DNA of 64,000 bases from Elusimicrobia bacterium RIFOXYD2_FULL_34_15 (GCA_001800605.1 MGVS01000068.1:14028-78027), one strand, 5' to 3'; positions 15,050-64,000 are shown, counted from the stretch's first letter. Translations and numbers: made by a program. The notes: generated from the sequence alone by a model not told the origin.

Positions 15050-16615
15050 ATGAAAATAACATTAATTTCAGTAACAGATGATATAACTGCATTCGGGTTA
15101 AGAAGTATTTCATCCTATTTAAAAAAGGCGGGACATTCCGTACGGATGATTTTCCTGCCTCAACCATTTTACAAAGGGCAACTTTCCGCAAAATATCCGG
15201 ATAATATTATTGACGAAGCGGTAAATCTATCTAAAGACTCCGATTTGATAGGTATATCTTTAATGACTAATCATTTTGAAAGGGCTGTGCAGATAACTCA
15301 AAATTTAAAAAAACATTTTGACATCCCGGTCATCTGGGGCGGAATTCATCCAACTGTTAAACCCGACGAAAGCCTAGAATACGCCGATATAGTTATTATT
15401 GGCGAAGGTGAGGAAACTTTGCAGGACTTAACTTCAAAAATAGATGAACTTCATAAAGTAAAAGGGATATACTTTAAAGATACGTCAGGTAAAATTGTAA
15501 AAAATGAAATGAGACCGCTAATCTGTGATTTGGACACAATACCGCCGCCAGATTATGATATTGAAGACCATTTTGTAATTGAAGGGAATAAAATTTACAA
15601 CATGAATGTTCCTCTTTTTAGAAAATATTTAGCAAGAACTTACAAACCCGATACTTACTACACAATGGCTACGCGGGGATGTATTATGAATTGTTCTTAT
15701 TGCTGCAACAATTTTTATTCTAGATATTATTCCGAACAGAAGAAATTCAGAAAAAGAAGCACAAAACATATAATTGACGAATTGAAAGCTATTTTGAAAA
15801 AATTCGATTTTATTAAGGTAATAGCATATTCAGATGATAGTTTTTTTTCAATTAGTTTCGACGAAATGAAGGATTTTTGCATTGAATACAAAAAAAATAT
15901 AGGAATGCCCCTTCAAATACCGGGCGTCTCTTACTGGAACTTCAGCGAAGAGAAACTTAAGCTTTGCCTTGATGCGGGACTTGAAAGAATACGTCTTGGA
16001 ATACAAACCTGCAGCGAGCGTACAAACAGAGAAATCTACAAACGTAATGTTTCAAATAAAAAATTGCTTGATATTATTAAAACTATAGATAAATACAAAT
16101 CACTTATGGAACCGCCGATGTACGATTTAATTCTTGATAATCCATGGGAGACCGATGATGATATAATCGAAACGTTAACTTTTTTGATTGAAATACCGAA
16201 ACCATATCATCTTTCTTTACATTCATTAACATTTTTTCCAGGAACTGAACTCTATGAAAGAGCAAAAAAAGAGAAACTAATTATTGATGATTTAAACGAT
16301 GTTTACCGTAAATACTATTGTGATTTTAAAAGAAATACTTATTTGAATAATTTATTTTTGCGCTTCTGGCTATGGAATATACCGAAACCTGTAGAAAAAT
16401 TACTAATAAATAAAACTCTCATTTCGACCGGATTGTATCGCGTTACTAACTTAATGATTAATTTTATAAGGTTAATCGAACTATTTTTCAAAGGATTAAA
16501 ATCTTTATTTAGGGGAAACTTATCTTCAATTTATTCTTACTTATTAGAGAGAATAAATACCTACAGAATAACAAAATCGTTATACAAAACATCCCGTAAA
16601 ACCGCTAAAAAATAG
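15050..16615 (+). CDS. B12-binding domain radical SAM enzyme (class B, candidate methyltransferase)
   Basis: 521 aa. N-terminal cobalamin-binding Rossmann domain (VIWGGIHPT, IIGEGEET) and CIMNCSYC (Cx3Cx2C) radical-SAM cluster motif. Confidence 0.85.
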   Translation: MKITLISVTDDITAFGLRSISSYLKKAGHSVRMIFLPQPFYKGQLSAKYPDNIIDEAVNLSKDSDLIGISLMTNHFERAVQITQNLKKHFDIPVIWGGIHPTVKPDESLEYADIVIIGEGEETLQDLTSKIDELHKVKGIYFKDTSGKIVKNEMRPLICDLDTIPPPDYDIEDHFVIEGNKIYNMNVPLFRKYLARTYKPDTYYTMATRGCIMNCSYCCNNFYSRYYSEQKKFRKRSTKHIIDELKAILKKFDFIKVIAYSDDSFFSISFDEMKDFCIEYKKNIGMPLQIPGVSYWNFSEEKLKLCLDAGLERIRLGIQTCSERTNREIYKRNVSNKKLLDIIKTIDKYKSLMEPPMYDLILDNPWETDDDIIETLTFLIEIPKPYHLSLHSLTFFPGTELYERAKKEKLIIDDLNDVYRKYYCDFKRNTYLNNLFLRFWLWNIPKPVEKLLINKTLISTGLYRVTNLMINFIRLIELFFKGLKSLFRGNLSSIYSYLLERINTYRITKSLYKTSRKTAKK

Positions 16616-16806
16616 TCTTAAATCAATTAACTGTTTTATAGTGTAAATAAGTTTTCAATTTATATTGTTACGAATTTATATCTAAAACTCTACCGGGACA
16701 TCCTATCAAAATGAGTTATAGAGTTTATTGAGTTCTTAGAGTTTTAGCGTTAGAATCCTATAACCCTATAACCCAAAAACCTATAAACTTCCTCTAAAAA
16801 AAGAGC

Positions 16807-16835
16807 TTGACAAATATTGAAATATTGTTTATACT
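16807..16835 (+). promoter_or_regulatory. Sigma70-type promoter (TTGACA 16807-16812, 17-nt spacer, TATACT 16830-16835) upstream of the GbsR-like regulator
   Basis: Direct sequence match in a 253-bp AT-rich intergenic region that also contains short CTATAACC-like direct repeats. Confidence 0.55.
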
Positions 16836-16867
16836 ATATTTAGAACGTTTAATACGTTTTAAACAAT

Positions 16868-17395: not shown

Positions 17396-18964
17396 ATGAG
17401 TACAAATATAAAAATTGCGAAAGCTTATGTCATTCTTATTACCGCAAGTGTTGTCGGCAGTATTTTGAGCTTAGGCAAAGAAATGCTTGTTGCCAAGTAT
17501 TTCGGAATTTCAAAAGCAATGGATGCTTTTTATACTGCTTTAACTATACCAAATTCTATTAACGCTATTACCGTCTCTACTTTTGGAATAACTTTTCTTC
17601 CTATTTTCGTGCAGTATAAAACTAAAGATAAAGAGGAAGCAAACCATCTGGCAAGTATTGCAATAAACTATATGTTTATTTTTCTTTTCTTAATTGCAAT
17701 AATTCTTTTTATTTTTTCTAAACAAATTGTAACTAATTTTTTTAATGGGTTGAACCCAGAAACATCTATGCTTGCAATAAATATATTGAAGATATTAAGC
17801 ATAACAATGATATTTACCGGTTTGGTCGGCACAATTACCTGGATATTAAACGCATTTGAAAATTTTTCTGCACCTTCATTTTCACAGATGTTTATAACAA
17901 TAAGCATTATAACCTTTATTTTCTTTTTTACTAAGAGTATGGGCGTTTATATTTTTGCATGGGGAACTCTTGCTGGTTTATTTATTCAATTTGTCTTTCT
18001 ACTGCCTTTTTTAAAAAGGAAAGGTTATAAACATTATTTTGATTTTAACATACGGCATCCTGCAATGAAAAAAACATTAAATTTCAGTTTGACATTTTTT
18101 TTGCTAGGAGTTATTTCAAGTTTGACAGCCATAATAAACAGATCTATGGCATCATGGCTGCCGTCCGGAAGTATTGCAGCGTTAGGCTATGCCGATAAAC
18201 TGGTGCAGGTGCCTTTGGTAATTTTTTCAGGTTCAATTGCAACCGCCATATACCCTTTTTTTGCGAGTCAATTTGCTGAAAATAAAATAGAGGACATGAA
18301 AGACACTCTTGCAACCAGCATAAAAATGACCGGTTTCATCTTTATACCTTTAGCCGTAGTTATGATTATTCTGTCAAAACCCACAATTCAAGCTCTATTT
18401 CAAAGGGGTGTTTTTGACGAACACGCAACAAATTTAACATCTATAATTTTTATATGCTATACACTTCAGCTTTTTTCCAATTTCGCAGTAGTAGTTATGG
18501 CAAGATTACTTCTTGTATTTCAGGATATGTTGAGTTATGTAAAAATAACAATAACCGGCATAGTGTTAACGGTAATACTAAATTTTATTTTTATTAAAAC
18601 GGTTAATCCGCCGGCAGCAGGAATCGCTCTTTCAACTTCCTTGGTGTGTCTAATTACTGCTATTCTTTATTTCATATATTTGAAGAAAAAAATACATAAT
18701 TTACATGGAATATCTATACTTAAATCGTTGAGTAAAACAACTTTTTTTGCTATAATATCAGGAATAATTATTTTTGTCGTTTTCCGAGAATTAAATGCAT
18801 TGATTCCAAAAATTTCACTTTTCAACCGGCTTTTTAAAATAATTTGTTCGGCATCTATAGGAATGGCATCTTTTATTGCAATATCATTTTTATTGAAATT
18901 TGAAGAAGCAGATAAAATTTATAAACTTGTAAAAACAAAAATTAGGAGTTTTGTTAAAAGATAA
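17396..18964 (+). CDS. MurJ/MviN-family (MOP superfamily) lipid-linked oligosaccharide flippase
   Basis: 522 aa with about 14 TM helices. N-terminal region ...GSILSLGKEMLVAKYFGISKAMDAFYTALTIPN matches MurJ/Wzx-type flippases. Confidence 0.75.
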   Translation: MSTNIKIAKAYVILITASVVGSILSLGKEMLVAKYFGISKAMDAFYTALTIPNSINAITVSTFGITFLPIFVQYKTKDKEEANHLASIAINYMFIFLFLIAIILFIFSKQIVTNFFNGLNPETSMLAINILKILSITMIFTGLVGTITWILNAFENFSAPSFSQMFITISIITFIFFFTKSMGVYIFAWGTLAGLFIQFVFLLPFLKRKGYKHYFDFNIRHPAMKKTLNFSLTFFLLGVISSLTAIINRSMASWLPSGSIAALGYADKLVQVPLVIFSGSIATAIYPFFASQFAENKIEDMKDTLATSIKMTGFIFIPLAVVMIILSKPTIQALFQRGVFDEHATNLTSIIFICYTLQLFSNFAVVVMARLLLVFQDMLSYVKITITGIVLTVILNFIFIKTVNPPAAGIALSTSLVCLITAILYFIYLKKKIHNLHGISILKSLSKTTFFAIISGIIIFVVFRELNALIPKISLFNRLFKIICSASIGMASFIAISFLLKFEEADKIYKLVKTKIRSFVKR

Positions 18965-18993: not shown

Positions 18994-20595
18994 ATGAATA
19001 CTAAACCGAAAGTGTTATTGGTTCATCCGGCAAGTAAATCAAGAGGGTTTGCTTTTCCCATAGGATTGCTTTATGTTGCGCAATCGCTGATTAAAACAGA
19101 TATTGACGTTTCATTTGTTCATCTTGGAATTGACAGTGTTAAAAACATAAAACTTGAAAATTACCTTTTTGTCGGAATTAGTATGCTTACCAGCAAGATG
19201 ATATTGGACGGATTACATGTTGCAAAATTAGTAAAAAATTACAATAAAAATATCCCTATTGTTCTTGGCGGGGTTCATCCGTCGCTGCTCCCTGAAGAAT
19301 CCCTGCAAAACGAACTCGTTGATATTGTCGTTATAGGAGAAGGGGAAAAAACGGTACAAGAACTTGCCGTCTGCCTGCAAAATAAAGGTGATTTATCTAA
19401 AATAAACGGAATTGCCTTTAAAGACAATACAGGAAAAATAGTTGTGAATCCACCCCGTGATTTTATTGATATGAATGAATTGGACTTTGACCTTCCGTAT
19501 CACCTTTTGGGTAATAACATTTCATTATCGTATGAGCTTCCTCTTCACACTTCTCGGGGTTGTCCTTATAAATGCAGTTTTTGTTACAGTCCAGCTTTTC
19601 ATAAACGAAAATACAGATGTAAGAGTGCCGAGAGAGTTGTTGAGGAAATAGAATATCTTTATAAAAAATATAATATAAAAAGATTCGATGCCGGATATGA
19701 GGATGAATTCTTTCTAGATGTCAACAGAACTTATAAAATATTTAGTACTATTCTTAAAAAGGGATTAAAAATTCGTTGGAGTTCCTTCTGTAGATTTGAC
19801 ACATTTGATAATGCAGTTAAAAAATTTGGTGCTGATTTTGTAGATACAATAAAAAAATCCGGGTGCGACTATCTGGCTCTAGGCGCAGAATCAGGCTCTC
19901 AAAGATTATTGGATGAAATTATTAAGAAAGATATTAAAATTGAACAAATTTTAAGAGCTGTTGATTGGCTGAAAAAATATAACATACCTCACAGAGTAGG
20001 TTTTACATGCTGTTATCCTACCGAAACACAAGAAGATTTAAACGCTACCTTTGATCTTATTGATAAAATATCTTATAACAATTCAAATATGATATTAGGA
20101 ATTGGAAGGTTGATTCCATTGCCCGGAACTTCGGTTTTTGAATTATTAAAAAAAGAATATAACTACAAACCACCTTCTACCTTAGTAGGTTGGGGTGAAT
20201 ATAATCCATTTGATTCGTATAAAGAAGCTACATGGCTTTCTGAAAAACATGTAAAAATGTGTCATAATATGAGTTTATTAGCCGCCCCAGGTTTTGTTTT
20301 TTACAAAGATTTCAAATCTTATAAAATGTACAGAGAATTTATTTCCAGTTCAAATTCCGCTACCGTTTACCCGACAGGATATGTAGGTTATCTGATAACT
20401 AAAATTCAAAGATGGCGGTATAAGAAAAGAAAATTTAATAATATGATAGAGTCAATTTTATTTAATAAATTTAGAAAAATGCAGTTTTCTATGAAAAGAT
20501 ATATTGTCAATATTATTCTTAGAAAATATTTATCTCAAAAAGCCTACCAAAGATTGAAAATTTGGTTTGGCAATAAAAATGTGACAGAAAAATAG
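18994..20595 (+). CDS. B12-binding domain radical SAM enzyme
   Basis: 533 aa. LGGVHPS and VIGEGEKT B12-domain motifs. CPYKCSFC radical-SAM motif. Confidence 0.85.
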   Translation: MNTKPKVLLVHPASKSRGFAFPIGLLYVAQSLIKTDIDVSFVHLGIDSVKNIKLENYLFVGISMLTSKMILDGLHVAKLVKNYNKNIPIVLGGVHPSLLPEESLQNELVDIVVIGEGEKTVQELAVCLQNKGDLSKINGIAFKDNTGKIVVNPPRDFIDMNELDFDLPYHLLGNNISLSYELPLHTSRGCPYKCSFCYSPAFHKRKYRCKSAERVVEEIEYLYKKYNIKRFDAGYEDEFFLDVNRTYKIFSTILKKGLKIRWSSFCRFDTFDNAVKKFGADFVDTIKKSGCDYLALGAESGSQRLLDEIIKKDIKIEQILRAVDWLKKYNIPHRVGFTCCYPTETQEDLNATFDLIDKISYNNSNMILGIGRLIPLPGTSVFELLKKEYNYKPPSTLVGWGEYNPFDSYKEATWLSEKHVKMCHNMSLLAAPGFVFYKDFKSYKMYREFISSSNSATVYPTGYVGYLITKIQRWRYKKRKFNNMIESILFNKFRKMQFSMKRYIVNIILRKYLSQKAYQRLKIWFGNKNVTEK

Positions 20596-20602: not shown

Positions 20603-21601
20603 ATGATTATAACAAGAACGCCTCATAGAATATCGTTTTTCGGCGGCGGAACAGATTATCCTTCATGGTATCTAAAAAACGACGGGAAAGTGCTCGGCGT
20701 TGCAATTGATAAGTATTGCTATCTAATCGTCCGTAAACTGCCGCCTTTTTTTGAAAATAAATACAAAATTGTATATTCGCAGATGGAATTTCCAAAAACC
20801 ATAGACGAAATTAAACATCCTTCTGTAAGAGAAACTCTTAAATATTTTAATTATAAAGAAGGAGTTTCTATACACCACGACGGCGATATTCCTGCAAGAT
20901 CCGGGATGGGTTCAAGCTCTGCTTTTACCGTAGGTTTATTAAAAGCTATGTATGCGCTTGAAGGGAATATTATTTCGAAAAGTGATTTATTTAAACTTGC
21001 AATAAATATTGAACAAAATATCATAAAAGAAAATGTCGGTTCCCAGGACCAGGTTTTTGCTGCTTATGGGGGATTAAATAAGATTGATTTTTTAAAAAGC
21101 GGTGAAATCGTTGTAACTCCGGTAGTTTTAAAACAAGAAAATTTATCACTGTTCGACAAAAAATTTATGCTTTTTTTTACTGGAATATCGCGTAACGCAT
21201 CCGATATAGCAGAAGAACAGATAAAAAATACAAATAAAAATGAAAATGAACTTTTTAAACTAAGCAAACTTGTTGACGATGCTTATGATATTTTAACATC
21301 ATCAAAACCTGAGTTTGGATTATTCGGGAAACTTCTTAACGAAACATGGAAATTAAAACGAAGCCTGTCGGCAAAAATAAGCAATAGTTTAATAGATAAT
21401 ATTTATGATACTGCTATGAAAAATGGAGCAGCAGGAGGAAAATTGCTTGGTGCGGGAGGCGGCGGTTTTATGCTTTTTTATGTAGAACCTGAAAATCAAG
21501 TGAAAGTAAAAAATGCATTGAAAAATTTAATTAATATAACTTTTGAGTTTGATTTTTCCGGTTCTGAAATAATAGTTTATAAACCGGAATTTTATAAATA
21601 A
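20603..21601 (+). CDS. GHMP-family sugar kinase (HddA / fucokinase-like)
   Basis: 332 aa. PARSGMGSSSAFTVGL ATP-binding GHMP motif. C-terminal GAGGGGF motif. Confidence 0.75.
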   Translation: MIITRTPHRISFFGGGTDYPSWYLKNDGKVLGVAIDKYCYLIVRKLPPFFENKYKIVYSQMEFPKTIDEIKHPSVRETLKYFNYKEGVSIHHDGDIPARSGMGSSSAFTVGLLKAMYALEGNIISKSDLFKLAINIEQNIIKENVGSQDQVFAAYGGLNKIDFLKSGEIVVTPVVLKQENLSLFDKKFMLFFTGISRNASDIAEEQIKNTNKNENELFKLSKLVDDAYDILTSSKPEFGLFGKLLNETWKLKRSLSAKISNSLIDNIYDTAMKNGAAGGKLLGAGGGGFMLFYVEPENQVKVKNALKNLINITFEFDFSGSEIIVYKPEFYK

Positions 21602-22029: not shown

Positions 22030-22962
22030 ATGAATAAAGATTCTAAAATTTATATCGCAGGGCATAACGGACTTGTAGGTTCCGCCTTGGTTAAAAAATT
22101 AAAAGAAGAGGGCTTTCTAAATATCATTACCCGCTCTTCATTAGAATTGAATCTTGTAAATCAAAAAGAAGTAGAGGATTTTTTTAATAATGAAAAACCC
22201 GATTATGTATTTTTACTTGCAGCAAGCGTCGGAGGCATTATTGAAAACAGAGAAAAACCGGCTAATTTCATTTATCCTAATTTATTAATAGAAAGTAACA
22301 TAATTAACTCCGCATGGAAATCAAATGTAAAAAAGTTAATATTTTTGGCTTGTTCAATTATTTATCCGAAAGAATGCCAGCAACCGTTAAAAGAGGAATA
22401 TCTACTATCCGGTTATCCTGAGCCGACTAATCTTGCACATACCATTGCCAAAATTGCAGGTATTGTATTATGCCAATCTTATAACAAACAATACAAAACA
22501 AATTTTATCTCCTGTGTAGCGTCAAACATATTCGGTCCTAATGATAATTTCGATCAAACAGCAGGGCATGTAATACCCGCTTTTATAAGTAAATTTCATA
22601 ATGCAAAAATAAATAATGAACCAAGCGTAACTATGTGGGGAACGGGAAAACCGTTGAGAGATTTTATTTATGTAGATGATGTTGTAAATGCATGCCTATT
22701 TCTTACAGAAAAATATGATTCTTCTGAAATTATAAATGTCGGCTCAGGGAAAGATATTTCCATAGGAGAACTTGCAGAATTAATTAAAGAAGTTACAGGA
22801 TATAATGGTAAAATTATATTTGATACCACAAAACCTGACGGTGCACCCAAAAGATTACTTGATAACAGCAAGATAAGTTTGTTGGGTTGGCAATTAAATG
22901 TTCCATTAAAAGAAGGTTTAGAAAATACTTATAATTGGTGGCTGAATAAGTTTTTAAAGTGA
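22030..22962 (+). CDS. fcl: GDP-L-fucose synthase (GDP-4-keto-6-deoxy-D-mannose 3,5-epimerase/4-reductase, Fcl/WcaG family)
   Basis: 310 aa. N-terminal KIYIAGHNGLVGSAL. YPEPTNLAHTIAKIAGIVLCQSYNKQY (YxxxK region) and FGPNDNF are collinear with E. coli Fcl. Confidence 0.85.
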   Translation: MNKDSKIYIAGHNGLVGSALVKKLKEEGFLNIITRSSLELNLVNQKEVEDFFNNEKPDYVFLLAASVGGIIENREKPANFIYPNLLIESNIINSAWKSNVKKLIFLACSIIYPKECQQPLKEEYLLSGYPEPTNLAHTIAKIAGIVLCQSYNKQYKTNFISCVASNIFGPNDNFDQTAGHVIPAFISKFHNAKINNEPSVTMWGTGKPLRDFIYVDDVVNACLFLTEKYDSSEIINVGSGKDISIGELAELIKEVTGYNGKIIFDTTKPDGAPKRLLDNSKISLLGWQLNVPLKEGLENTYNWWLNKFLK

Positions 22963-24879: not shown

Positions 24880-24885
24880 AAATAT

Positions 24886-55365: not shown

Positions 55366-56814
55366 ATGTTAAATGTTTTACTAATCAGTGCTCCGTATGT
55401 TGATTTATATGGACCCATTAAGTCCGCAGCCGGGAGGTATTTTCCTTTAGGCTTGGGATATATCGCATCTTTCCTTAAAAAAAACGGGTACTCAGTATCT
55501 CTTTACGAACCTGAAGCTCAAAAATTAAACATAGAAGAAATAAGTAAAATCTTCGCCGAAAAGAAACCTGACATAGTCGGTATCGGCAGTGCAACACCCA
55601 ATTTTTACAACGCCGTTGAACTGGCAAAACTAGCTAAAAAAACCTGCAATTGCAAGGTAATACTCGGAGGTATTCACGCGAGCGCTATTCCAGAATTCAT
55701 CATTGAAAAATATCATACTTGCTTTGACTATTTAGTTGTCGGTGAAGGTGAATACACAATGCTGGAACTCTTAAAATGCCTGGAAAATAAACAAATGCCT
55801 GATAGTGTTCCCGGCCTATGTTTTTGGCATGAAAATAAGGTTAATTTAACTCCATGCCGTCCATTCATCATGGATTTAGATAGTTTGCCTTATCCTGCCA
55901 GGGATATGATACCGCAAGAACTGTTTTATCCAAATTTACACAACGCAAGATACAGCAAGTGTTTTACTATACTTACCAGCAGAGGATGTCCTTTTAATTG
56001 TTCTTTTTGTGCTTCCGGATTAACTTTAGGTAAAAAATACAGGGTTAACAGTGCAGAATATGTGCTTGGTGAAATGTCTATGTTAAAAGAACAGTACGGG
56101 GCCAGGCAACTACTAATTACAGATGATACTTTCACTATCAATAAAAATAGATTACTTGAAATATGCGAAGGTATGATAAAAAAGAAACTGAACCTGGAAT
56201 GGTTTTGTTTTTCTCAGATAACTGCTGTAGATGAAGAAACCTTAAAACTAATGAAACGTGCGGGTTGCTATAATATAGGTTTCGGTATAGAATCGGCATC
56301 TCCGAGAATTTTGAAAATAATGGGCAAGCCGTATTCTCCGCAACAATGCAAAACTGTTATTGACGCCGCTAACCGTTTGGGAATGAAAACGCAGGCGTTT
56401 TTTGTTTTCGGCGAACCGGAAGAAACCATAGAAGAAATTAACAGTACGGTTAATTTTGCTATCGATATTAATCCGACATTATCATTTTTCAATATGCTGG
56501 TTCCGTATCCCGGCACAAAAGATTTCCAATATTTTTTCAAAGATATACCGCTGGATCAGATTGACTGGAAAAACTTTGTTGCTATAGGAACTAAATCCGT
56601 TATCAATAAAAATAGCAATTTAGATTTGGAAAAAATAGTCTTTAACGCCAATTTAAAATTTTATATGAGACCGCGCCAATTATTACATATCATATCAAAA
56701 ATTAAAACTTTTCATGAACTCTATTCGTATATTAAAGGCGGCTTAGGACTGCTCGCACAAATGATAACTTGGAAAACAGAAACCCGGCAAACAGATGAAA
56801 ATACTCTTAATTAA
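55366..56814 (+). CDS. B12-binding domain radical SAM enzyme
   Basis: 482 aa. ILGGIHAS and VVGEGEYT B12-domain motifs. CPFNCSFC radical-SAM motif. Confidence 0.85.
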   Translation: MLNVLLISAPYVDLYGPIKSAAGRYFPLGLGYIASFLKKNGYSVSLYEPEAQKLNIEEISKIFAEKKPDIVGIGSATPNFYNAVELAKLAKKTCNCKVILGGIHASAIPEFIIEKYHTCFDYLVVGEGEYTMLELLKCLENKQMPDSVPGLCFWHENKVNLTPCRPFIMDLDSLPYPARDMIPQELFYPNLHNARYSKCFTILTSRGCPFNCSFCASGLTLGKKYRVNSAEYVLGEMSMLKEQYGARQLLITDDTFTINKNRLLEICEGMIKKKLNLEWFCFSQITAVDEETLKLMKRAGCYNIGFGIESASPRILKIMGKPYSPQQCKTVIDAANRLGMKTQAFFVFGEPEETIEEINSTVNFAIDINPTLSFFNMLVPYPGTKDFQYFFKDIPLDQIDWKNFVAIGTKSVINKNSNLDLEKIVFNANLKFYMRPRQLLHIISKIKTFHELYSYIKGGLGLLAQMITWKTETRQTDENTLN

Positions 56815-58216
56815 TCCGCCAAACACAAACATGATTTTAACGCATTTACCTTCATATATCGATGAAGAATCCGGTATTTTTCCGCCATTGGGATTGATGT
56901 ATCTTGCCTCGTCTTTATCAAATAAGACCGGCATAAATGTTGAAATTCTGGATGCACTTTTAAATAAAATAAGCCTAAATAATATAGCAAATAAAATTAC
57001 AAATTATTTGCCGGACTTAGTAGGAATAACCGCGACTTCTTTCACGCTTATAGATGCTTTACTTATTGCCAAAACAGTAAAAGAAGTCAATCAAAATATA
57101 CATGTCACTATGGGCGGACCTCATGTAAGTATTTATCCTAATGAGACACTTTTGCAGAAAGATGTTGATTCTGTAGTCATCGGAGAGGGGGAAAAGACAT
57201 TCTCCGATTTAGTCAATAATTTAAACGAAGGAAAAAATCTTGAAGGAATTCCGGGATTAGCATTTAAAAATAAACAGGGACAAATAATAAATAACGGATA
57301 CAGGGATTTTATTGAAAATTTAGATGAGATTCCTTTACCCGACCGGAATCTTACTCCGTATAAAGAATATTATTCCATACTCGGAGAAAAACATCCTATT
57401 ACTACAATCATCACAAGCCGAGGCTGTCCGTTTAGATGCTCTTTTTGCTATCATTTCCTGGGTAAAAAATGGAGAACACGCTCTGCTAAAAACGTAATTG
57501 AAGAATTAGAGTCTTGCGTAAATATAGGAATTAGAGAATTCTGGTTTTTTGATGAAACATTTACAATTGATAAAAAAAGAGTCCTGGACATATGTGACGG
57601 TATAATCTCAAAAAAATTAAATATAAAATGGAATATCCGTAGCAGGGTAGATACAATCGATAAAAACATGATGGAGAGATTAAAACTGGCCGGCTGCGAA
57701 AAAATCTCATTTGGCATAGAATCGGCATTATCCAAGACTTTAAAAGTATTGCAGAAAGAAATAAATCCTGATAAATCCAAAGAAATTGTTTTACTGGCGA
57801 AATCATTAGGATTCGAAACTTCCACAGATTTTATGATAGGTTCCCCGGGAGAAACACGTGAAGACATTTTAGAAACAATATCTTTTTCATTAAAATTAGA
57901 CCCGGATTATGCCACATTTTCCATAACCACGCCTTTTCCTTGTACACAACTTTATAATTCATTGCTTGAAAATAAATTTTTTGACCGTGATTATTGGAAA
58001 GATTTCAGCATTTCACCAAGTAAAGATTTTATACCTAACCTTTGTAATGAATATTTATCCAGGGAAGAATTAGCTCATTTGCAGAATTATGCTTATAAAA
58101 AATTCTATCTGCGCCCGAAATATATTTTAAAGAAAATGTTAAAGCTAAAATCACCGATTGATTTTCTCAGAAAAGCAAAGGTTTCGCTAAGAATGCTTGC
58201 AAGCCGGGAAAAATGA
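56795..58216 (+). CDS. B12-binding domain radical SAM enzyme
   Basis: 473 aa. MGGPHVS and VIGEGEKT B12-domain motifs. CPFRCSFC radical-SAM motif. 20-nt overlap with the upstream paralog. Confidence 0.85.
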   Translation: MKILLINPPNTNMILTHLPSYIDEESGIFPPLGLMYLASSLSNKTGINVEILDALLNKISLNNIANKITNYLPDLVGITATSFTLIDALLIAKTVKEVNQNIHVTMGGPHVSIYPNETLLQKDVDSVVIGEGEKTFSDLVNNLNEGKNLEGIPGLAFKNKQGQIINNGYRDFIENLDEIPLPDRNLTPYKEYYSILGEKHPITTIITSRGCPFRCSFCYHFLGKKWRTRSAKNVIEELESCVNIGIREFWFFDETFTIDKKRVLDICDGIISKKLNIKWNIRSRVDTIDKNMMERLKLAGCEKISFGIESALSKTLKVLQKEINPDKSKEIVLLAKSLGFETSTDFMIGSPGETREDILETISFSLKLDPDYATFSITTPFPCTQLYNSLLENKFFDRDYWKDFSISPSKDFIPNLCNEYLSREELAHLQNYAYKKFYLRPKYILKKMLKLKSPIDFLRKAKVSLRMLASREK

Positions 58217-59790
58217 AGAAAACCATAATTTTATTAGTTATTCTTATCGCAAGTGCCGTCATACGGTTAACAGGAATCCAATGGGGACTGCCAAATAAGT
58301 TTCATACCGTAACATATCATCCCGATGAAAATACTCATCTTGTAAAACTTCAGGCAATGAATCCTTCAAAATTAAATTTTAACCCGGTTAGCGAAAGAGA
58401 CCCTTATGCTTTAGGAGAAGGTACTTTTTTCCTTTATCAATACGCTGCTACTTTAAAAATTTTGTCTTTTATTAAATATATTAAAATTGTAAACAATGAA
58501 GAATATTATTTCAATAATATCAATGAATGGAGAAAATTCTTTTTAGTCGGCCGTTTACTTTCAGTTATTTACGGGGTTTTAACCATTTTGGTTACTTTTA
58601 TAGTCGCAAAAAAAATGTACGGATTCAGAACCGGTATTCTTGCGGCGCTTTTTTTAGGTCTTGCACCGGTCCACGTAACCTATTCACAGTACCTGTTAAT
58701 GAATGTACCGGGAGTTCTCTGGATTGTCCTTGCTTTTGTTTTCTTTAAAAATATTTTAGATTCCGGAAAACAAAAAGATTATATTTTAGCCGGGGTATGC
58801 ATCGGTTTTGCGATTTCAACACGGTACTCTGCAGGGCCTTTATTATTAGTATTAATTGTCACACACTTTCTACGCAAAGAAATAAAAGAATTAAAAAAAC
58901 TGGTTTTCGGCCTGACAGCAATGGTTTTTTCTTTTTTAATCGGCACTCCTTATGCAATTCTCGATTATCCTAATTTTATAAAAGGGATAAAATCGCCGAT
59001 AGCTGTAGCAGGCATATCTTCCGCTAATTATTCGATTTTACCGCTGTATGGAAGTTTTTTGGAAAGCTTTGGAATATTTTTACTTATTTTATGCCTGATA
59101 GGTATTTTATATGCAATAATAAAAAGAAAATCAGAAGATTATATTATTCTTACATGGATTTTTATTTTACTTTTCTTTTTTATAAGAGCAGGAGTAAACG
59201 CTTTTCCAGGTAGAATACTGCCAATTGTTCCTTTTTTAATAATTCTGGGGGCAAATCTAACAAATAATATATGGAATAAAAAAGCTGTTTTAGGTCTGTT
59301 TATGACTATATTAATTCTTCTTACTATTTTACCTTTTTCGCTTGCCTTGTTAAAATTAAGAACCGAACCCGATTTAAGGGATGTTTCTTCCGAATGGATA
59401 GAAAATAATATCACTGCGGGCTCAAGCATCGGACTGCTCCGCGAACCGTCGTGGTTTTCACCTGGTATAGTTGATAGAAAATACCGGCATCCGGAGTATT
59501 TAAACTTGCCTAATTATAAGTTTATACTATTAAACGGAGATTTACCTTCTTATCCCGGATATATCAAACTTAAAAAAAATTTACCTGATTACTTAATAAT
59601 AAGTGATGTTGAAATTAATTTGCTAAATGAACCTGGATTCCTAAATAAACTAAAAGAAAAATATCACTATGAAAATATCGAAAATTTTGATAAAAGTTTC
59701 AGTATTTTCAATATACGAGTAAACCGGCAAATACCCGAGATGATTCGCGTACCGAACTACATATCAATCTTCAAGAAAAACAAATCTTAA
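58213..59790 (+). CDS. GT-C fold membrane glycosyltransferase (ArnT/PMT_2-like)
   Basis: 525 aa with about 11 TM helices. First-loop motif YHPDENTH (DE) as in ArnT/PMT-type GT-C enzymes. C-terminal soluble domain. Confidence 0.5.
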   Translation: MKKTIILLVILIASAVIRLTGIQWGLPNKFHTVTYHPDENTHLVKLQAMNPSKLNFNPVSERDPYALGEGTFFLYQYAATLKILSFIKYIKIVNNEEYYFNNINEWRKFFLVGRLLSVIYGVLTILVTFIVAKKMYGFRTGILAALFLGLAPVHVTYSQYLLMNVPGVLWIVLAFVFFKNILDSGKQKDYILAGVCIGFAISTRYSAGPLLLVLIVTHFLRKEIKELKKLVFGLTAMVFSFLIGTPYAILDYPNFIKGIKSPIAVAGISSANYSILPLYGSFLESFGIFLLILCLIGILYAIIKRKSEDYIILTWIFILLFFFIRAGVNAFPGRILPIVPFLIILGANLTNNIWNKKAVLGLFMTILILLTILPFSLALLKLRTEPDLRDVSSEWIENNITAGSSIGLLREPSWFSPGIVDRKYRHPEYLNLPNYKFILLNGDLPSYPGYIKLKKNLPDYLIISDVEINLLNEPGFLNKLKEKYHYENIENFDKSFSIFNIRVNRQIPEMIRVPNYISIFKKNKS

Positions 59791-59871: not shown

Positions 59872-60861
59872 ATGCAAAATAAAAAAATTACAATCGGACT
59901 GATTGGTTTTGGATATTGGGGTCCTATTTTATTACGGAATTTTCATAATAATGAAAATTTTGAGGTTCTAAAAGTTTGTGATCATAATTCCGAAAAACTT
60001 TCAAATGTTGTTGATATTTCTAAAAACATTAAAACCTGCCTTGATTACAAAGATATACTTAAAGATAAAGAAATTGATACCGTTGTTATTGATACACAGG
60101 CACGCTCACATTATAGCCTGATTCGGGAAGCTTTAATAAATAACAAAAATATTTTTGTAGAAAAACCTTTTACGTTAAGTTCAAAAGAAGCTTTGGATAT
60201 TATTAAACTGAACCAAAAGAAAAAAAAGATAATAATGGTAGATCATTCATATTTATTCACTCCACAATACAGAATATTAAAAAAATTAATTAAAAACAAA
60301 TATTTAGGCAACATTCTGCATTTTCACTCAACCAGGGCTGATTTCGGGTTATTTCAAAAAGATACCAATATATTATGGCATCTTTTATATCATGATGCTT
60401 ATATCTTGCTGGATCTTTTTGGAAAACAAAAAATAACGAATATTAAAACGAGCGGTTTTTCACATATAGTAGATAAAGTTGCGGATACGGCATATACTTC
60501 ATTTCAATACGATTCCGGATTTAGCGCTGAAGTTTTAGTTAATATGCTATTCCCTGTGAAGGAGAGAAAAATAGTTATTACAGGAACTAAAAGAATTCTT
60601 TACTGGGATGATACCGCAGCAGATAAATTGAAAATTTACAATAAATCTGCCGTTTTCGATACAAAAAGCAAAACTTTCAAATATAAACTTGAAAAAGATT
60701 TTGAGACAGTCGCAGTTCCTAAGGCAGAAGCGATAAAAACAGAAGTTGAATATTTTTCTAATTGTTTAAAGAATAAAATAACTCCCGCAAATGATGAAAA
60801 CTCAGCTTACAGTGTAGTTAAATTAATAGAAAAGCTGGAATCTTCAGTGCATAAGAATTAG
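59872..60861 (+). CDS. Gfo/Idh/MocA-family NAD(P)-dependent oxidoreductase
   Basis: 329 aa. ITIGLIGFGYWGP Rossmann N-terminus. EKP motif. Confidence 0.8.
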   Translation: MQNKKITIGLIGFGYWGPILLRNFHNNENFEVLKVCDHNSEKLSNVVDISKNIKTCLDYKDILKDKEIDTVVIDTQARSHYSLIREALINNKNIFVEKPFTLSSKEALDIIKLNQKKKKIIMVDHSYLFTPQYRILKKLIKNKYLGNILHFHSTRADFGLFQKDTNILWHLLYHDAYILLDLFGKQKITNIKTSGFSHIVDKVADTAYTSFQYDSGFSAEVLVNMLFPVKERKIVITGTKRILYWDDTAADKLKIYNKSAVFDTKSKTFKYKLEKDFETVAVPKAEAIKTEVEYFSNCLKNKITPANDENSAYSVVKLIEKLESSVHKN

Positions 60862-60873
60862 TCCGGTTAAAAT

Positions 60874-61620
60874 ATGAAAAATTTAAGTTTGGAAATAACT
60901 ATTCCTGTACTCAACGAAGAAAAAAGGCTGGAATACGGCTTGTCTACAACAATAGAATTTCTTCAGAAAAATAACATATCTAATTATAAAATTGTTATAG
61001 CAGATAACGGTTCGAAAGACAGAACCGAAGAAATAGCAACATTGCTTGAAAAAAAATATCCCCAGGTACGTTATATTAAAGTTGGGCAAAAAGGGGTTGG
61101 TTTAGCATTAAAAAAATCATGGAATGCTTCAAATGCCGACATCATTGGATATATGGACGTTGATCTGGCTACTGATCTTACCCATCTATTAGATGTAATT
61201 AGTAAGATGCAAAATGATGAAATAGATATAGTAAACGGTTCAAGAATACTGCCTGGTTCTAAAGTCATTAATAGGTCAGCATTGAGAGAAACCACTTCCA
61301 GAGGATTTAATTTTATTTTGAAAGCTATTCTTAACGTTAATTTTTCAGACGGTATGTGCGGTTTTAAATTTATAAAAAGAACTGCATTTAACAAATTGAT
61401 GAAAGCCGGTATTGATAATAATGACTGGTTTTTTTGTACCGAAATGCTTATTAAAGCTGAATGGTCAGGATTGAATATTTATGAACTTCCGGTTCAATGG
61501 AAAGATGACGGGGATTCAAGGGTTGATATTTCAAAAACTATTTACAAATACATGAAAGAAATATTTAAGTTGAGATTTAGTAAAAACTTATGGCTAAAGA
61601 AAACTACTTCGATTTCGTAA
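60874..61620 (+). CDS. GT2 family polyprenyl-phosphate sugar synthase (ArnC/DPM1-like)
   Basis: 248 aa. ITIPVLNEEKRL, ADNGSKDRT and MDVDLATD motifs. Confidence 0.78.
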   Translation: MKNLSLEITIPVLNEEKRLEYGLSTTIEFLQKNNISNYKIVIADNGSKDRTEEIATLLEKKYPQVRYIKVGQKGVGLALKKSWNASNADIIGYMDVDLATDLTHLLDVISKMQNDEIDIVNGSRILPGSKVINRSALRETTSRGFNFILKAILNVNFSDGMCGFKFIKRTAFNKLMKAGIDNNDWFFCTEMLIKAEWSGLNIYELPVQWKDDGDSRVDISKTIYKYMKEIFKLRFSKNLWLKKTTSIS

Positions 61621-62723
61621 TTTTTGGAGCAGGCATTTACGGATTTTATGCTTCTTATTTATTAGCTAAGAAAAATCTTAATGTTGCTTTAATTGAATGC
61701 GATAACGAAGTCTTTAAAAGAGCGTCGGATATAAATCAGAGACGGGTTCATAAAGGATATCATTACTTGCGAAGTGTAAGTACTGCTAAGACATCTTCAA
61801 AGTATTTCAACCGATTCTGTGAAGAATTTAAACCCGCCATTCACTCTTCATTTAAAAAAATTTATGCGGTATCCAACAGGAATTCTTATACATCACACAG
61901 GCAATTTTTGAAATTTTGCGAATTTTGTGAAATTCCTGTTTTAGAAGTGAATCCGTCTATCTATTTCAATCCGGGTACAATTGAGGGTGCTTATGAAACG
62001 GAAGAATACGCTTTTGATTCGGAAATAATAAAAGACGTGCTTGTTCAGAAGGTTAACAATTTTGACAACTTTAAATTATTTTTAAATAAGCGGGTTGTTA
62101 AAACTGAAAAAGATAACGAATTTTATTATTTGACTTTTGAAGACGGTTCACGTATTAAAACAAAAGGCGTCTTTAACTGTACTTATGCCAGCGTAAATCA
62201 GATCTTAAGCTTATTTGGCTTTGAATTATTTGATTTGAAATATGAGATTTGCGAAGTGATTTTATGCAGTGTAAACCAGCAGCTTAAAAATATAGGGATA
62301 ACGGTAATGGACGGCCCTTTTTTTTCGACCATGCCTTATGGAAAGAGCGGTTATCATTCCCTTACAGCCGTTGAATTTACTCCGCATAATACATCTTATA
62401 ACCGCTTGCCTGTTTTTAAATGCCAGAAGGTTAATACATCCTGCACAGCAAATGTTTTGCAAAATTGTAATACTTGTAAAACTAGGCCCAAAGAATCATA
62501 CGTTTATATGAGACAATTAGCATACAAATATCTTAAACCGGCATATGAACTCAATTTTAAAGAATCACTTTTTTCAATTAAGCCAATTATGATGGCATCT
62601 GAAATAGACGATTCCCGTCCTACTGTTATAAAAAAATATAATGAAAGTCCTTTATTTATTTCTGTATTATCAGGTAAAATTAATACAATTTATGAATTGG
62701 AGGAGATAATCAATGCAATATAA
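61590..62723 (+). CDS. FAD-dependent oxidoreductase
   Basis: 377 aa. N-terminal dinucleotide-binding motif FVIFGAGIYGFYASYLLAKKNLNVALIE. Confidence 0.6.
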   Translation: MAKENYFDFVIFGAGIYGFYASYLLAKKNLNVALIECDNEVFKRASDINQRRVHKGYHYLRSVSTAKTSSKYFNRFCEEFKPAIHSSFKKIYAVSNRNSYTSHRQFLKFCEFCEIPVLEVNPSIYFNPGTIEGAYETEEYAFDSEIIKDVLVQKVNNFDNFKLFLNKRVVKTEKDNEFYYLTFEDGSRIKTKGVFNCTYASVNQILSLFGFELFDLKYEICEVILCSVNQQLKNIGITVMDGPFFSTMPYGKSGYHSLTAVEFTPHNTSYNRLPVFKCQKVNTSCTANVLQNCNTCKTRPKESYVYMRQLAYKYLKPAYELNFKESLFSIKPIMMASEIDDSRPTVIKKYNESPLFISVLSGKINTIYELEEIINAI

Positions 62724-63645
62724 AGAAAAACCTTTTGTTTCAATCGTGGTTTATTTACACAATTCTTCAAAAGAAATAGAAACTTTTATCAAAAATATTA
62801 ATCAGGTTATTTCATCTAAATTTGAAAATTATGAATATATACTTGTTGATGATTTTTCGCAAGACGGAACATACGAAAAAGCGGTTGAAGTTACTAAATT
62901 GATGAAAATCAAGGTATCCATCATCCGGCTTGCCCGCAAACATAATAAAGAACTTGCACTGCTTGCCGGCGCAGATAAATCTGTAGGCGATTACATCTTT
63001 GAATTCGAGACTCCGACCATTGATTATCCCTTGGAGTTGATTAATGAAATGTACGACAGAACCAAAAAGGGTTATGATGTTGTTACCCTTGAACCGACAA
63101 AAAGGGCATTTTTTACAAAAGTATTTTACTTTCTATTCAACAAATTTTCCTATATTGACTCTGATGTATATTCTGAACGGATTATTTTTTATAGCAGGCG
63201 CGCTATGAATTCCATATTAAATATAAACGAGAAAATCCGCAACAGAAAAGCACTTTTATTTTTAACAGGTTTCATGAAAACAAATATTAGATTTAAACCA
63301 GTAAATAATGATTATAAAGATACAAGAAAGTTCTTTGAGAAGGTTCAAATAGCAGTTGAGTTTCTTGTTTCTTATTCAAGTATAGGAACAAAACTTCCGA
63401 TTTTTCTTTCAATTGTATTTATTCTGTTTTCGATTTGTGCTTCACTGTTCGCCGTATATATCAGGTTTTTTAAGGCAGGGATCGTAAGCGGCTGGGCAAG
63501 CATGATAATTTTTCTTTCTATCTCTTTTGCCGGTCTGTTTTTTATATTGGGAATACTAAGTGAATATATTTCAAAGATATTAAAAGAAAGTATCAATATT
63601 CCTTTATATACAATTCAAAAAATGTATTCCGGCAATGACATTTAA
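62713..63645 (+). CDS. GT2 family glycosyltransferase with C-terminal TM helices (GtrB/bactoprenol-sugar synthase-like)
   Basis: 310 aa. VSIVVYLHNSSKEI...VDDFSQDGT. Two C-terminal hydrophobic helices as in GtrB. Confidence 0.75.
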   Translation: MQYKEKPFVSIVVYLHNSSKEIETFIKNINQVISSKFENYEYILVDDFSQDGTYEKAVEVTKLMKIKVSIIRLARKHNKELALLAGADKSVGDYIFEFETPTIDYPLELINEMYDRTKKGYDVVTLEPTKRAFFTKVFYFLFNKFSYIDSDVYSERIIFYSRRAMNSILNINEKIRNRKALLFLTGFMKTNIRFKPVNNDYKDTRKFFEKVQIAVEFLVSYSSIGTKLPIFLSIVFILFSICASLFAVYIRFFKAGIVSGWASMIIFLSISFAGLFFILGILSEYISKILKESINIPLYTIQKMYSGNDI

Positions 63646-63669
63646 TCCTATCAGTATTTAAAATTAATT

Positions 63670-64000
63670 ATGGATGTTCTGTTAGTTCAACCGGTAAAAA
63701 ATAAAAATCATACAATAAATCTAACACCTCCTTTGGGATTGGGATATTTAGCTTCTTCTATAAGAAAGCAGCACAATGTAAGAATTTTAGATTGTGTAAA
63801 AGAAGGGCTTGATCTTGACAGTTTTAGAGATTATGTGCAAAAAAATCCGACTGATGTTATAGGTTTTAATGTATATTCCTGTGATATTGAAAATGTAAAA
63901 AAAAGCATCGAGATAGTTAATGAGATAAATCCCGATATAATAACTCTTGCCGGCGGGCCGCATCCGTCCGGTGATCCGGAAGAGACGATGCTTTACTTAG
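63670..64000 (+). CDS. B12-binding domain radical SAM enzyme (partial; continues past the window end)
   Basis: N-terminal B12 domain. LGLGYLASS...LAGGPHPSGDPEET follows the same pattern as the other eight paralogs. Confidence 0.7.
   Translation, partial: MDVLLVQPVKNKNHTINLTPPLGLGYLASSIRKQHNVRILDCVKEGLDLDSFRDYVQKNPTDVIGFNVYSCDIENVKKSIEIVNEINPDIITLAGGPHPSGDPEETMLYL

Follow-up and report, generated by a model that had tools for sequence, protein, structure and literature searches.

A surface-glycan locus of an uncultivated Elusimicrobia bacterium with at least eleven B12-type radical SAM genes in two conserved gene contexts

Radical S-adenosylmethionine (SAM) enzymes with a B12-type domain are abundant: a 2026 review counted 83,589 of them, divided among more than 100 groups of which the largest lack an assigned function (PMC12931638). 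Nine genes of this type, called a to i here in gene order, lie among glycosyltransferase and sugar-nucleotide genes in one 64,000-nucleotide stretch of Elusimicrobia bacterium RIFOXYD2_FULL_34_15 (MGVS01000068.1:14028-78027; hereafter the window). Exact protein look-ups (OGS44920-OGS44964) identified the source as a metagenome-assembled genome (MAG) of an uncultivated organism from Rifle groundwater. We lean, if only slightly, towards a reading in two units, according to which these enzymes would edit both the nucleotide-linked and the polyprenyl-phosphate-linked sugars of an envelope glycan.

Closest described systems

Radical chemistry on a lipid-linked sugar is known from the hopanoid pathway, in which the glycosyltransferase HpnI and then HpnK act before HpnJ, and HpnJ contracts the ring of a lipid-linked glucosamine to give a cyclitol ether; calditol synthase works in a similar way (PMC13459092). 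The modules described below would share this logic: a lipid first receives a hexose or hexosamine from a glycosyltransferase, and the lipid-linked sugar is then rearranged by a radical SAM enzyme that has a B12-type domain. The order of a GT2 followed by a radical SAM gene is the same. HpnJ is also the best-scoring curated family for h, a and e. However, h reaches only 239 bits against a cutoff of 578, and the window holds no hopanoid genes (shc, hpnH, hpnG, hpnI or hpnK). The GT2s here resemble ArnC, GtrB and DPMS, so that the lipid is likely to be polyprenyl phosphate rather than bacteriohopanetetrol, and a GT-C transferase comes next, implying that the sugar is passed on rather than left on the lipid. 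HpnJ and calditol synthase are thus precedents for radical editing of a lipid-linked sugar.

The three-component lipid-carrier systems (ArnC/ArnT for the 4-amino-4-deoxyarabinose (Ara4N) of lipid A, GtrA/B/C, CsbB/YfhO and Ppm1/Pmt) combine a polyprenyl-phosphate GT2 and a GT-C transferase in one operon, as these modules would. Editing on the carrier has a precedent there, as ArnD deformylates Und-P-Ara4FN. Unlike in those systems, one or two B12-type radical SAM genes, often with a SPASM radical SAM or a methyltransferase gene, stand between the GT2 and the GT-C in the modules, and no flippase of the GtrA or ArnE/F type was identified in the window.

The two-domain architecture of the paralogs is that of GenK, GenD1, Fms7, MoeK5 and AprD4, which act at unactivated carbons of carbohydrates, as the paralogs would. 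Those antibiotic-pathway enzymes, by contrast, take free aminoglycoside or phosphoglycolipid intermediates of secondary metabolism, and relatedness to AprD4 is at the superfamily level only (25-113 bits on the AprD4 model, against a cutoff of 500). Within the Elusimicrobia, Meheust et al. (2020) reported suites of many radical SAM genes, with B12 domains in some of them and HemN_C in others, next to group VI nitrogenase-like paralogs, and proposed a role in tetrapyrrole cofactors (10.1101/765248). The present locus resembles these suites in phylum and in gene types, but it has no nifH-, nifD- or nifK-like genes, its context is one of sugar-nucleotide and glycosyltransferase genes, and its lineage has a low guanine-plus-cytosine (GC) content of ~32%. 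Identity with the cluster associated with nif paralogs was rejected, as nif-like genes are lacking and the context differs.

A reading made from the sequence alone (the sequence-only reading) had judged the locus to be unlike characterised O-antigen or capsule loci. The literature agrees with this as far as it was covered, which is outside subscription-only papers: no paper was found that describes such a locus, that places B12-type radical SAM enzymes in O-antigen, capsule, polysaccharide, candidate phyla radiation (CPR) or Elusimicrobia glycan loci, or that reports a module of GT2, radical SAM and GT-C genes. Overall, neither the superfamily nor the type of glycosylation logic is new; what is uncharacterised is their combination, which many phyla conserve.

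Gene content and conservation of the two units

Judging from gene content, an envelope-glycan super-locus with co-directional genes, roughly 60-70 kb long, lies for the most part in the 64-kb window. The radical SAM genes are integral to it: starts and stops overlap, and other genomes keep the synteny. The GC content of the window is ~32%, and the + strand holds every domain-bearing open reading frame (ORF) of at least 150 aa; the Pfam scan covered 55 such ORFs and the cut ORF at 63670. The sequence-only reading had started the glycan locus at 15050. The locus itself stood, its boundary did not: the real beginning lies upstream at ~6313, with two Wzy_C genes, two YfhO-like genes, a GT2 and a GT4. 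The genes of the two units and their immediate neighbours are as follows, where TM stands for transmembrane, TPP for thiamine pyrophosphate and NDP for nucleoside diphosphate.

9659-11578, + strand: YfhO-like GT-C (Pfam)
11541-12272, + strand: GT2 (Pfam)
12259-13833, + strand: YfhO-like GT-C (Pfam)
13830-14972, + strand: GT4 (Pfam)
15050-16615, + strand: B12-type radical SAM a, 521 aa (PF02310 72.7 bits, PF04055 60.6 bits, CIMNCSYC at residue 211)
18994-20595, + strand: B12-type radical SAM b, 533 aa (Pfam, motif)
20603-21601, + strand: GHMP sugar kinase (Pfam; NF049969 HddA, a heptose-7-phosphate kinase model, is best but sub-threshold)
22030-34785, + strand: nucleotide-sugar tailoring block (Pfam, NCBIfam), with genes starting at 22030 (Fcl-like), 22973 (NDP-hexose 4,6-dehydratase), 23944 (SDR), 24886 (unknown protein), 25729 and 26595 (PDH-E1 alpha/beta-like TPP enzyme), 27631 (DJ-1/PfpI), 28277 (Fcl-cupin fusion), 30005 (UxaA/galactarate-dehydratase-like), 31605 (HAD), 32239 and 33228 (SDRs) and 34192 (NUDIX)
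34779-36104, + strand: B12-type radical SAM c, tightly packed, NUDIX upstream
36106-37518, + strand: B12-type radical SAM d, tightly packed, HemN downstream
37518-38945, + strand: HemN-type radical SAM (TIGR00538)
39112-42535, + strand: SDR (39112), Glyco_trans_1_2 (40119), radical SAM/SPASM (41360) (Pfam)
42573-49427, + strand: B12-type radical SAM e (42573), GT4 (44070), class I SAM methyltransferase (45173, overlapping f), B12-type radical SAM f (45970), AsnB-type amidotransferase (47541)
49701-50498, + strand: GT2, probably of the polyprenyl-phosphate glycosyltransferase type (structure and sub-threshold NCBIfam matches)
55366-56814, + strand: B12-type radical SAM g
56795-58216, + strand: B12-type radical SAM h
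58213-59790, + strand: PMT_2 (ArnT/Pmt-like) GT-C (PF13231 and PF02366; PMT_2 at 48 bits, above gathering; eight TM-like segments)
59872-63645, + strand: GFO/IDH/MocA oxidoreductase (59872), GT2 (60874), FAD/NAD oxidoreductase (61590), GtrB-like GT2 (62713) (Pfam)
63670-64000, + strand: B12-type radical SAM i, truncated at the window end, full length 463 aa (PF02310)

The nine radical SAM gene starts given by the sequence-only reading (15050, 18994, 34779, 36106, 42573, 45970, 55366, 56795 and the cut gene at 63670) were exact, and all nine genes are on the + strand. The hidden Markov model check that it had suggested, with PF02310 and PF04055, was run and found the domain architecture of class B radical SAM enzymes. 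Its description of a B12 domain and a radical SAM core in each copy was nearly right: the B12-binding-like domain is present in all nine and the core in the eight complete genes, while of the cut gene at 63670 only the B12 domain is seen. PF02310 scored above gathering in 8 of the 9 genes (51-76 bits, against 32.1) and fell below it in c (27.5 bits); PF04055 scored above gathering in all eight complete genes (60-90 bits). CxxxCxxC occurs at residues 190-220 in those eight, and the motif is found in i, j and k as well. The motif patterns proposed earlier need loosening. GGxH is present in all nine and the stricter forms fit most copies, the variants being GGPHAA in c, GGAHPT in f, GGPHVS in h and VVGEGE in g, with no xxGEGE in f.

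Overlapping public contigs add two B12-type genes, j (515 aa) and k (>476 aa), which brings the locus total to at least 11. The contigs carrying the window are 105-125 kb long, and after i the gene order on two of them (L084, L085) is j, PMT_2, AsnB, GT2, PMT_2, k. On PF02310 j scores 39.8 bits, and precomputed Pfam annotation gives a B12-binding domain for i, j and k. Pairwise identity among all eleven paralogs is only 23-35%; they are therefore distinct old families and not recent duplications. Recent gene amplification as their source was rejected on the same figure.

The first of the two units is a putative lipid-carrier module, in which B12-type radical SAM genes stand beside a GT2 and a GT-C. 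The orders are GT2 49701, an inserted island, g, h, PMT_2; GT2 62713, i, j, PMT_2; and GT2, PMT_2, k; in the upstream part they are YfhO, GT2, YfhO, GT4, a. The g-h-PMT_2 run contains two overlaps, with the start of h (56795) inside g, which ends at 56814, and the start of the PMT_2 gene (58213) inside h, which ends at 58216; the public gene call for h begins at a later start codon than the ORF used here. The five GT-C genes are two YfhO-like genes, both sub-threshold in Pfam (25 bits, against 28.5), and three PMT_2 genes, namely 58213 and two downstream of the window (44 and 61 bits). For each of the four window GT2s, the best NCBIfam matches are sugar transferases that use polyprenyl or dolichyl phosphate (PpgS, AglJ, PgfS, ArnC, Dol-P-hexose transferase). 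For GT2 11541 these are PpgS, Dol-P-hexose transferase and ArnC, all sub-threshold. GT2 49701 has AglJ as its best NCBIfam match and DPMS (5mlz), ArnC and GtrB as its nearest solved structures; among the GT2s of the window it is the one most similar, 26 times out of 32, to the GT2s upstream of h orthologs, and for this reason we take it as the partner of the g/h module. The full length of GT2 62713 can be aligned to GtrB (5ekp) and to ArnC, and this protein shares a GtrB-type C-terminal TM pair with the downstream 287-aa GT2 (2 of the 5 GT2s). The sequence-only reading had named the lipid carrier only in an aside, as another possible target of modification. That aside fits the strongest context signal, as g/h, i/j and k stand between such GT2s, similar to polyprenyl-phosphate glycosyltransferases, and GT-C transferases.

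The module recurs far beyond this organism. Family h has >3,760 homologues at E ≤ 1e-20, and the GTDB representative genomes yielded 388 loci. These span more than 20 phyla, among them Nitrospirota, Elusimicrobia, Omnitrophota, Brocadia and other Planctomycetota, Chloroflexota, Desulfobacterota, Armatimonadota, Patescibacteria and Saccharibacteria, and among archaea, DPANN included, Woese-, Aenigmat-, Iain- and Altiarchaeota. The best match to h in the representative genomes, which do not include this MAG, is 54% identical. Neighbourhoods were counted in 80 fetched loci. The same-strand ORF directly upstream of h is a GT2 in 33 of 57, and in about half of the cases detected by BLAST the gap is -3, an overlap of the start codon; the GT2 partner in Brocadia aligns end to end with ArnC. 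Directly downstream of h (n = 54) are a class I methyltransferase (14), the flippase-like LPG_synthase_TM (11), a B12-type radical SAM (9), PMT_2 (5) or GT87 (2), and one h homologue (P0007) is fused to a methyltransferase domain. Three Elusimicrobia loci (L010, L015, L055) have the order GT2, h, PMT_2, AsnB, with PMT_2 orthologs at 37-45% identity, and a g-like gene follows h in five loci (L016, L017, L020, L022, L057). SPASM radical SAM enzymes and methyltransferases are frequent companions of the module. In the h family alignment, C267 and C301 are invariant, besides CxxxCxxC, across 18 homologues of many phyla, and conserved basic helices make up the last 50 residues.

Family i is likewise widespread. 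One Omnitrophica locus reads GT2, PMT_2, i, three methyltransferases, radical SAM, GT2(TM), GT4, PMT_2, PMT_2, and a Nanoarchaeota contig reads radical SAM, SPASM, GT2, methyltransferase, radical SAM, SPASM, PMT_2, GT2, i. The latter contig (L170; ENA ERZ27247117 k141_37814) has, within ~10 kb and adjoining large RHS/YD-repeat proteins, three B12-type and two SPASM radical SAM genes together with two GT2s, one methyltransferase and one PMT_2. Of the loci of at least 15 kb, 11 of 44 for h and 14 of 20 for d have two to five B12-type radical SAM genes; the window, where 49 kb contain nine, is the far end of a continuum.

The second unit is a nucleotide-sugar cassette at ~22-41 kb. JGI metagenomes were scanned with an alignment of four d orthologs, giving 78 loci that were compared with the window proteins by BLAST. 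Thirteen distinct loci (GC 0.32-0.63) had d at ≥57% identity, three of them found via HemN. In 12 of these 13, c, d and HemN are syntenic with the flanking SDR, NUDIX, HAD, UxaA-like, Fcl-cupin, DJ-1 and TPP genes, the cassette genes being 46-88% identical in L088, L089 and L093-L109. The order, with variable members in parentheses, is (4,6-dehydratase) (TPP E1 alpha, beta) (DJ-1) (Fcl-cupin) (UxaA-like) (HAD) SDR SDR (NUDIX) (b) c d HemN (SDR) (GHMP) (Glyco_trans_1_2). Orthologs of c are 58-77% and those of d 57-68% identical, and 11 of 13 loci preserve their order; c is missing from L090, which does have d and HemN, and HemN from L093, which does have c and d. In related loci an ortholog of b stands between NUDIX and c (56-58% identity in L094, L101 and L108), and GHMP kinase orthologs in cassette loci are 51-58% identical to 20603, which itself scores 160 bits on HddA NF049969 against a cutoff of 600. 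Distant relatives of d (41-48% identity) still stand beside GHMP kinase, Fcl-like, dehydratase and SPASM genes. As d lies beside sugar-nucleotide genes across identity tiers, family d is tied to activated-sugar metabolism. The locus thus does not stand alone: its core cassette recurs in metagenome contigs and in further Elusimicrobia genomes, which is in part the outcome that the sequence-only reading had named as telling against itself.

The identity of the sugar is less specific than GDP-6-deoxyhexose, which can be retained only as an approximation. From the enzyme set proposed for it, two Fcl-like genes were recovered near threshold (421 and 408 bits, against a cutoff of 500), the GMD/Rmd-like assignment failed, and further SDR epimerase/dehydratases number four, not five. 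The supposed GMD gene is a generic NDP-hexose 4,6-dehydratase (RmlB 167, LegB 155 and Gmd 147 bits, against a cutoff of 415), and in NCBIfam neither the Fcl-like genes nor the Gmd candidate reach the equivalog cutoffs of the GDP-L-fucose pathway.

Three cassette members deserve separate mention. The split TPP enzyme (25729-27488), PDH-E1-like and sub-threshold in NCBIfam, is kept at 47-78% identity in L093, L098, L103, L104 and L106. PDH-E1-like alpha/beta pairs are implicated in the addition of two-carbon branches to deoxysugars in some antibiotic pathways. By analogy, the TPP enzyme could provide a second, non-radical route to C-branching of a keto-sugar. The DJ-1/PfpI gene (27631-28203) is a local GC peak (41%, against ~32%) and shares 88% identity with its counterparts in L101 and L104, against 56-78% for its neighbours, a remarkably high conservation given that it has no obvious sugar-pathway role. 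The ORF at 24886-25725 (279 aa) has no significant Pfam match and a faint likeness to rhamnosyl O-methyltransferase/CmcI (14.7 bits, E 0.026), and unlike its neighbours it has no homologue in related cassette loci.

Both the HemN-like gene (37518) and the SPASM radical SAM gene (41360) seen by the sequence-only reading were verified by Pfam and NCBIfam. The protein of 37518 scores 423 bits on the hemN equivalog TIGR00538 (cutoff 324.95; model positions 5-445 of 454). Like HemN, it spans the full model and carries the hallmarks YxHxPxCxxxCxFCxC and GGGxPT, here as HIPYCPKQCWFCIC and GGGSPT. Unlike HemN, it is translationally coupled to d, its start codon overlapping the stop codon of that gene, and it has no heme genes nearby; the same sugar and radical SAM operon surrounds it in 12 of 13 related loci, with HemN at most two genes downstream of d. 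Its closest homologues (56-60% identity) are in other Elusimicrobia, in the order SDR, SDR, NUDIX, c, d, HemN, further B12-type radical SAM genes, Glyco_trans_1_2. By its sequence 37518 is thus of the HemN type, and its context marks it as a probable dedicated member of this pathway. The proposal that it is a class C methyltransferase was neither supported nor excluded: it scores 157.7 bits on ChuW/HutW (TIGR04107; cutoff 400) while passing the true HemN cutoff, and NosN, TbtI and Jaw5 have no model in the library. The SPASM protein scores 76.7 bits on PF04055 and 46.4 bits on PF13186 and attains no curated family cutoff; its homologues recur beside relatives of h, d and i.

Proposed roles and competing explanations

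Domain content, gene order, the overlaps of starts and stops and the conservation of both units were observed directly. Building on these, the reading that we slightly favour assigns the following roles. In the cassette, c, d and often b would act with the HemN-type enzyme to tailor an activated deoxy-sugar intermediate. In the lipid-carrier modules, of which the locus would have at least three, a GT2 like ArnC, GtrB or DPMS would load a sugar on polyprenyl phosphate at the cytoplasmic face. One or two radical SAM enzymes (g and h; i and j; k) would then edit the lipid-linked sugar at an unactivated carbon, whether by methylation, by ring contraction of the HpnJ type or by deoxygenation of the AprD4 type. 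After flipping, a GT-C transferase (PMT_2/ArnT-like or YfhO-like) would transfer the sugar to a periplasmic acceptor. This acceptor may be a glycan, lipopolysaccharide (LPS) or another lipid-borne structure such as a glycolipid, or pilin or another protein; pilMNOPQ and two Wzy_C genes are adjacent.

Family placement bears on the chemistry. The curated NCBIfam cutoffs of the best-scoring models range from 251 to 750 bits, and the best partial matches were as follows.

a: HpnJ 106 bits (cutoff 578)
b: ApyD 141, MJ_1487 132 bits
c: PhpK 109, BchE 106 bits
d: Sden_1168 P-methylase 204, BchE 185 bits
e: HpnJ 144, BchE 140 bits
f: MJ_1487 110 bits
g: ApyD 201, BchE 190 bits
h: HpnJ 239, BchE 209 bits

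For HpnJ (TIGR03471, cutoff 577.6), the match of h, the best among the paralogs, covers model positions 48-451 of 472. The methylase models in the library, which has none for GenK and Fom3, stayed below cutoff as well (KedN5 26-101 against 700, HpnR 31-136 against 650, TsrM at most 76 against 500, rSAM_ocin_1 42-112 against 282, MgmA 31-122 against 360), and for nearly every paralog the C-methylase models (KedN5, HpnR, TsrM, PoyC-type, MgmA) were outscored by those of HpnJ, BchE, ApyD and the P-methylase. The solved chains nearest by sequence to h and d are AprD4, MgmA, OxsB, TokK, TsrM and CysS. An AlphaFold (AF2) model of h (mean pLDDT 89) best matched AprD4 (TM-score 0.71-0.73), followed by TsrM, OxsB, MgmA, CysS and TokK. 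AprD4 is a sugar 1,2-diol dehydratase with a Rossmann-like domain that works without cobalamin, and the review found no features that set non-methylating members apart from methylases (PMC12931638). Since no family cutoff was reached, AprD4 is the nearest structure and no separating features are known to the review, the sequence does not tell whether the paralogs methylate or use cobalamin.

Several results weigh against the two-unit reading. In the NCBIfam search no paralog attained any curated family cutoff, and the top structure match of the h model, AprD4, works without cobalamin, which leaves the label 'B12-dependent' itself unproven. The substrates, step order, chemistry, cobalamin use and final acceptor proposed above are drawn from gene neighbourhood; no substrate, product or cofactor was observed. 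Tested conserved partners are lacking for a, b, e and f. About 40% of h loci have no upstream GT2, and a Portnoybacteria relative of family i stands alone among housekeeping genes. The assignments of all four window GT2s fall below the curated NCBIfam cutoffs, and 3 of the 5 GT2s have no TM segments. Finally, no small flippase of the GtrA or ArnE/F type was present among the 55 ORFs of at least 150 aa scanned with Pfam, and the sole flippase is a MurJ equivalog.

Four alternatives were weighed, each of which fits the gene contexts less well than the two-unit reading. The sequence-only reading had proposed C-methylation 'as GenK and Fom3 do', and in its full form this alternative holds that all paralogs are cobalamin-dependent C-methyltransferases acting on a GDP-6-deoxyhexose, the HemN-like protein being a class C methyltransferase. 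Among characterised class B enzymes, C-methyltransferases form the largest class and are spread over the whole similarity network (PMC12931638), relatives of d keep company with genes for NDP-sugar dehydratase, Fcl-like and GHMP proteins across levels of identity, and two Fcl-like genes come near threshold. We nevertheless regard this alternative as unlikely. The sub-cutoff scores favour HpnJ, BchE, ApyD, Sden_1168/PhpK and MJ_1487 over the C-methylase models, none of which reaches its cutoff, and the closest structure is the non-methylating AprD4, so that with the review (PMC12931638) C-methylation cannot be inferred. In addition, 37518 passes HemN (423 > 325) and fails ChuW/HutW (158 < 400), the 'GMD' is not specifically a GDP-mannose dehydratase, and at least five paralogs (g to k) lie beside lipid-carrier GT2 and GT-C genes rather than nucleotide-sugar genes.

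It is more doubtful still that the radical SAM enzymes modify lipids, that is, the polyprenyl chain or membrane lipids (by methylation, cyclisation or cross-linking), with the GT2 and flippase-like neighbours making or moving glycolipids. The models of TIGR04072 (lipid/ladderane B12-type radical SAM), HpnR and related families stay far below their cutoffs, no SHC, isoprenoid or fatty-acid synthesis genes are present in the window, and c and d lie among sugar-nucleotide enzymes. These facts have to be set against the many B12-type radical SAM enzymes that do work on lipids (HpnP, HpnR, GrsA/B, Gmm and the ladderane enzymes; PMC13459092), the LPG_synthase_TM gene downstream of h in 11 of 54 loci, the 80-163 bits that all paralogs score on TIGR04072, and the occurrence of the family in Brocadia and archaea.

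A tetrapyrrole or cofactor role for the BchE-like d and for HemN, merely embedded in a glycan locus, is very improbable. BchE scores of 185 bits for d and 209 for h, the passing of the HemN equivalog and the Elusimicrobia lineages IV and V, in which up to 13 radical SAM genes (some with B12 domains, some with HemN_C) lie beside nif-like genes (10.1101/765248), would agree with it; the BchE scores, however, are well under the cutoff of 481, no nifH-, nifD- or nifK-like or tetrapyrrole gene occurs in the window or in the 10 kb downstream, and the d-HemN pair lies in an SDR, NUDIX, HAD and glycosyltransferase context in 12 of 13 related loci. Least probable of all is a modification of proteins or peptides (pilins, or products like ribosomally made peptides with post-translational modifications (RiPPs)) that PMT_2 would O-glycosylate: although g and b best match the RiPP enzyme ApyD (201 and 141 bits), PMT_2 is the protein O-mannosyltransferase family and the locus adjoins pilMNOPQ and two Wzy_C genes, the ApyD scores are far under the cutoff of 750, the strongest conserved neighbour is a GT2 rather than a peptide or protease, and a precursor-peptide gene was neither identified nor excluded, no search having been aimed at one.

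Returning to the two-unit reading, its lipid-carrier part suggests a broader generalization, which we put forward tentatively and would rate as possible rather than probable. Modules of this kind may form a widespread, uncharacterised class of lipid-carrier glycosylation systems, in which B12-type radical SAM enzymes edit a polyprenyl-phosphate-linked sugar before its transfer to the surface of the cell by a GT-C enzyme, by C-alkylation, carbocycle-forming ring contraction or deoxygenation. The class would extend over Elusimicrobia, Omnitrophota, anammox Planctomycetota, CPR and DPANN. In the present locus at least three such modules would be stacked on a cassette that has two or three B12-type radical SAM enzymes of its own and a repurposed HemN. 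The organism's surface glycans would then bear several modifications put in by radical chemistry, of types so far unseen in any bacterial glycan.

Flanking features, the inserted island and wider meaning

The remaining features of the window are listed here.

262-4809, + strand: pilMNO(P)Q (Pfam)
6313-7779 and 7832-9562, + strand: two Wzy_C membrane proteins directly after pilMNOPQ, the second with a C-terminal TPR (PF04932 47 and 77 bits; nine TM-like segments each)
between radical SAM a and the flippase at 17396: small ORF like a helix-turn-helix (HTH) protein
17396-18964, + strand: MurJ-type MOP flippase (TIGR01695 murJ 270 bits, cutoff 235.6; fourteen TM-like segments)
50494-55373, + strand: inserted island with HsdM, DUF3800, an HTH fragment, PRiA4_ORF3 and RadC (Pfam)

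From their sequence, the Wzy_C proteins at 6313 and 7832 are like O-antigen ligases, polymerases or O-oligosaccharyltransferases. The position of this pair, one member of which is fused to TPR, next to pilMNOPQ makes pilin a possible acceptor of the glycan. The sequence-only reading was right to place a flippase in the locus, as 17396 passes the MurJ equivalog cutoff (270 against 235.6). MurJ is the lipid II flippase, and this sole flippase of the locus may therefore be a housekeeping peptidoglycan flippase rather than a dedicated glycan one. An Rfam search of the whole window gave no match, and a promoter and terminator scan of 47-58.5 kb gave no excess of counts over shuffled sequence.

A 4.75-kb island (50.5-55.2 kb; HsdM, DUF3800, HTH fragment, PRiA4, RadC) interrupts the glycan locus between GT2 49701 and g. 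This insertion lies outside the pathway and is flanked by a GC-rich direct repeat of ~125 nt (50494-50620 and 55248-55373; 80-82% identity). Each repeat copy ends at a start codon, the in-frame ATG at 50615 (HsdM) and the ATG at 55366 (radical SAM g), and both fold into three similar hairpins (z-scores -3.2 and -2.1). The repeat had no Rfam match beyond noise and no third copy within the window; it may represent either an attachment site or a leader that was duplicated. In three other sequencing runs the assemblies (the starts of L001, L002, L003 and L085) break at ~55264, inside the right-hand repeat, while the ENA scaffold L084 has the island. These breaks suggest that the island varies between strains or samples. 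Within its HTH-fragment ORF, a perfect 12-nt tandem repeat, TGTAAAAGACAC, is present in ~3.5 copies at 53438-53480.

The locus gives a concrete context to several class B groups, through the pair of an ArnC-like GT2 and a B12-type radical SAM enzyme, which has thousands of members in more than 20 phyla, and through the sugar cassette of c, d and HemN. If the two-unit reading is true, radical C-H chemistry would join the repertoire of envelope glycan biosynthesis, and a protein that scores as a bona fide HemN could hold a dedicated non-heme role. The small modules of two or three genes would be open to reconstitution in vitro. New sugar structures, and possibly biomarkers, would be predicted for uncultivated anaerobes, including CPR bacteria and DPANN archaea.

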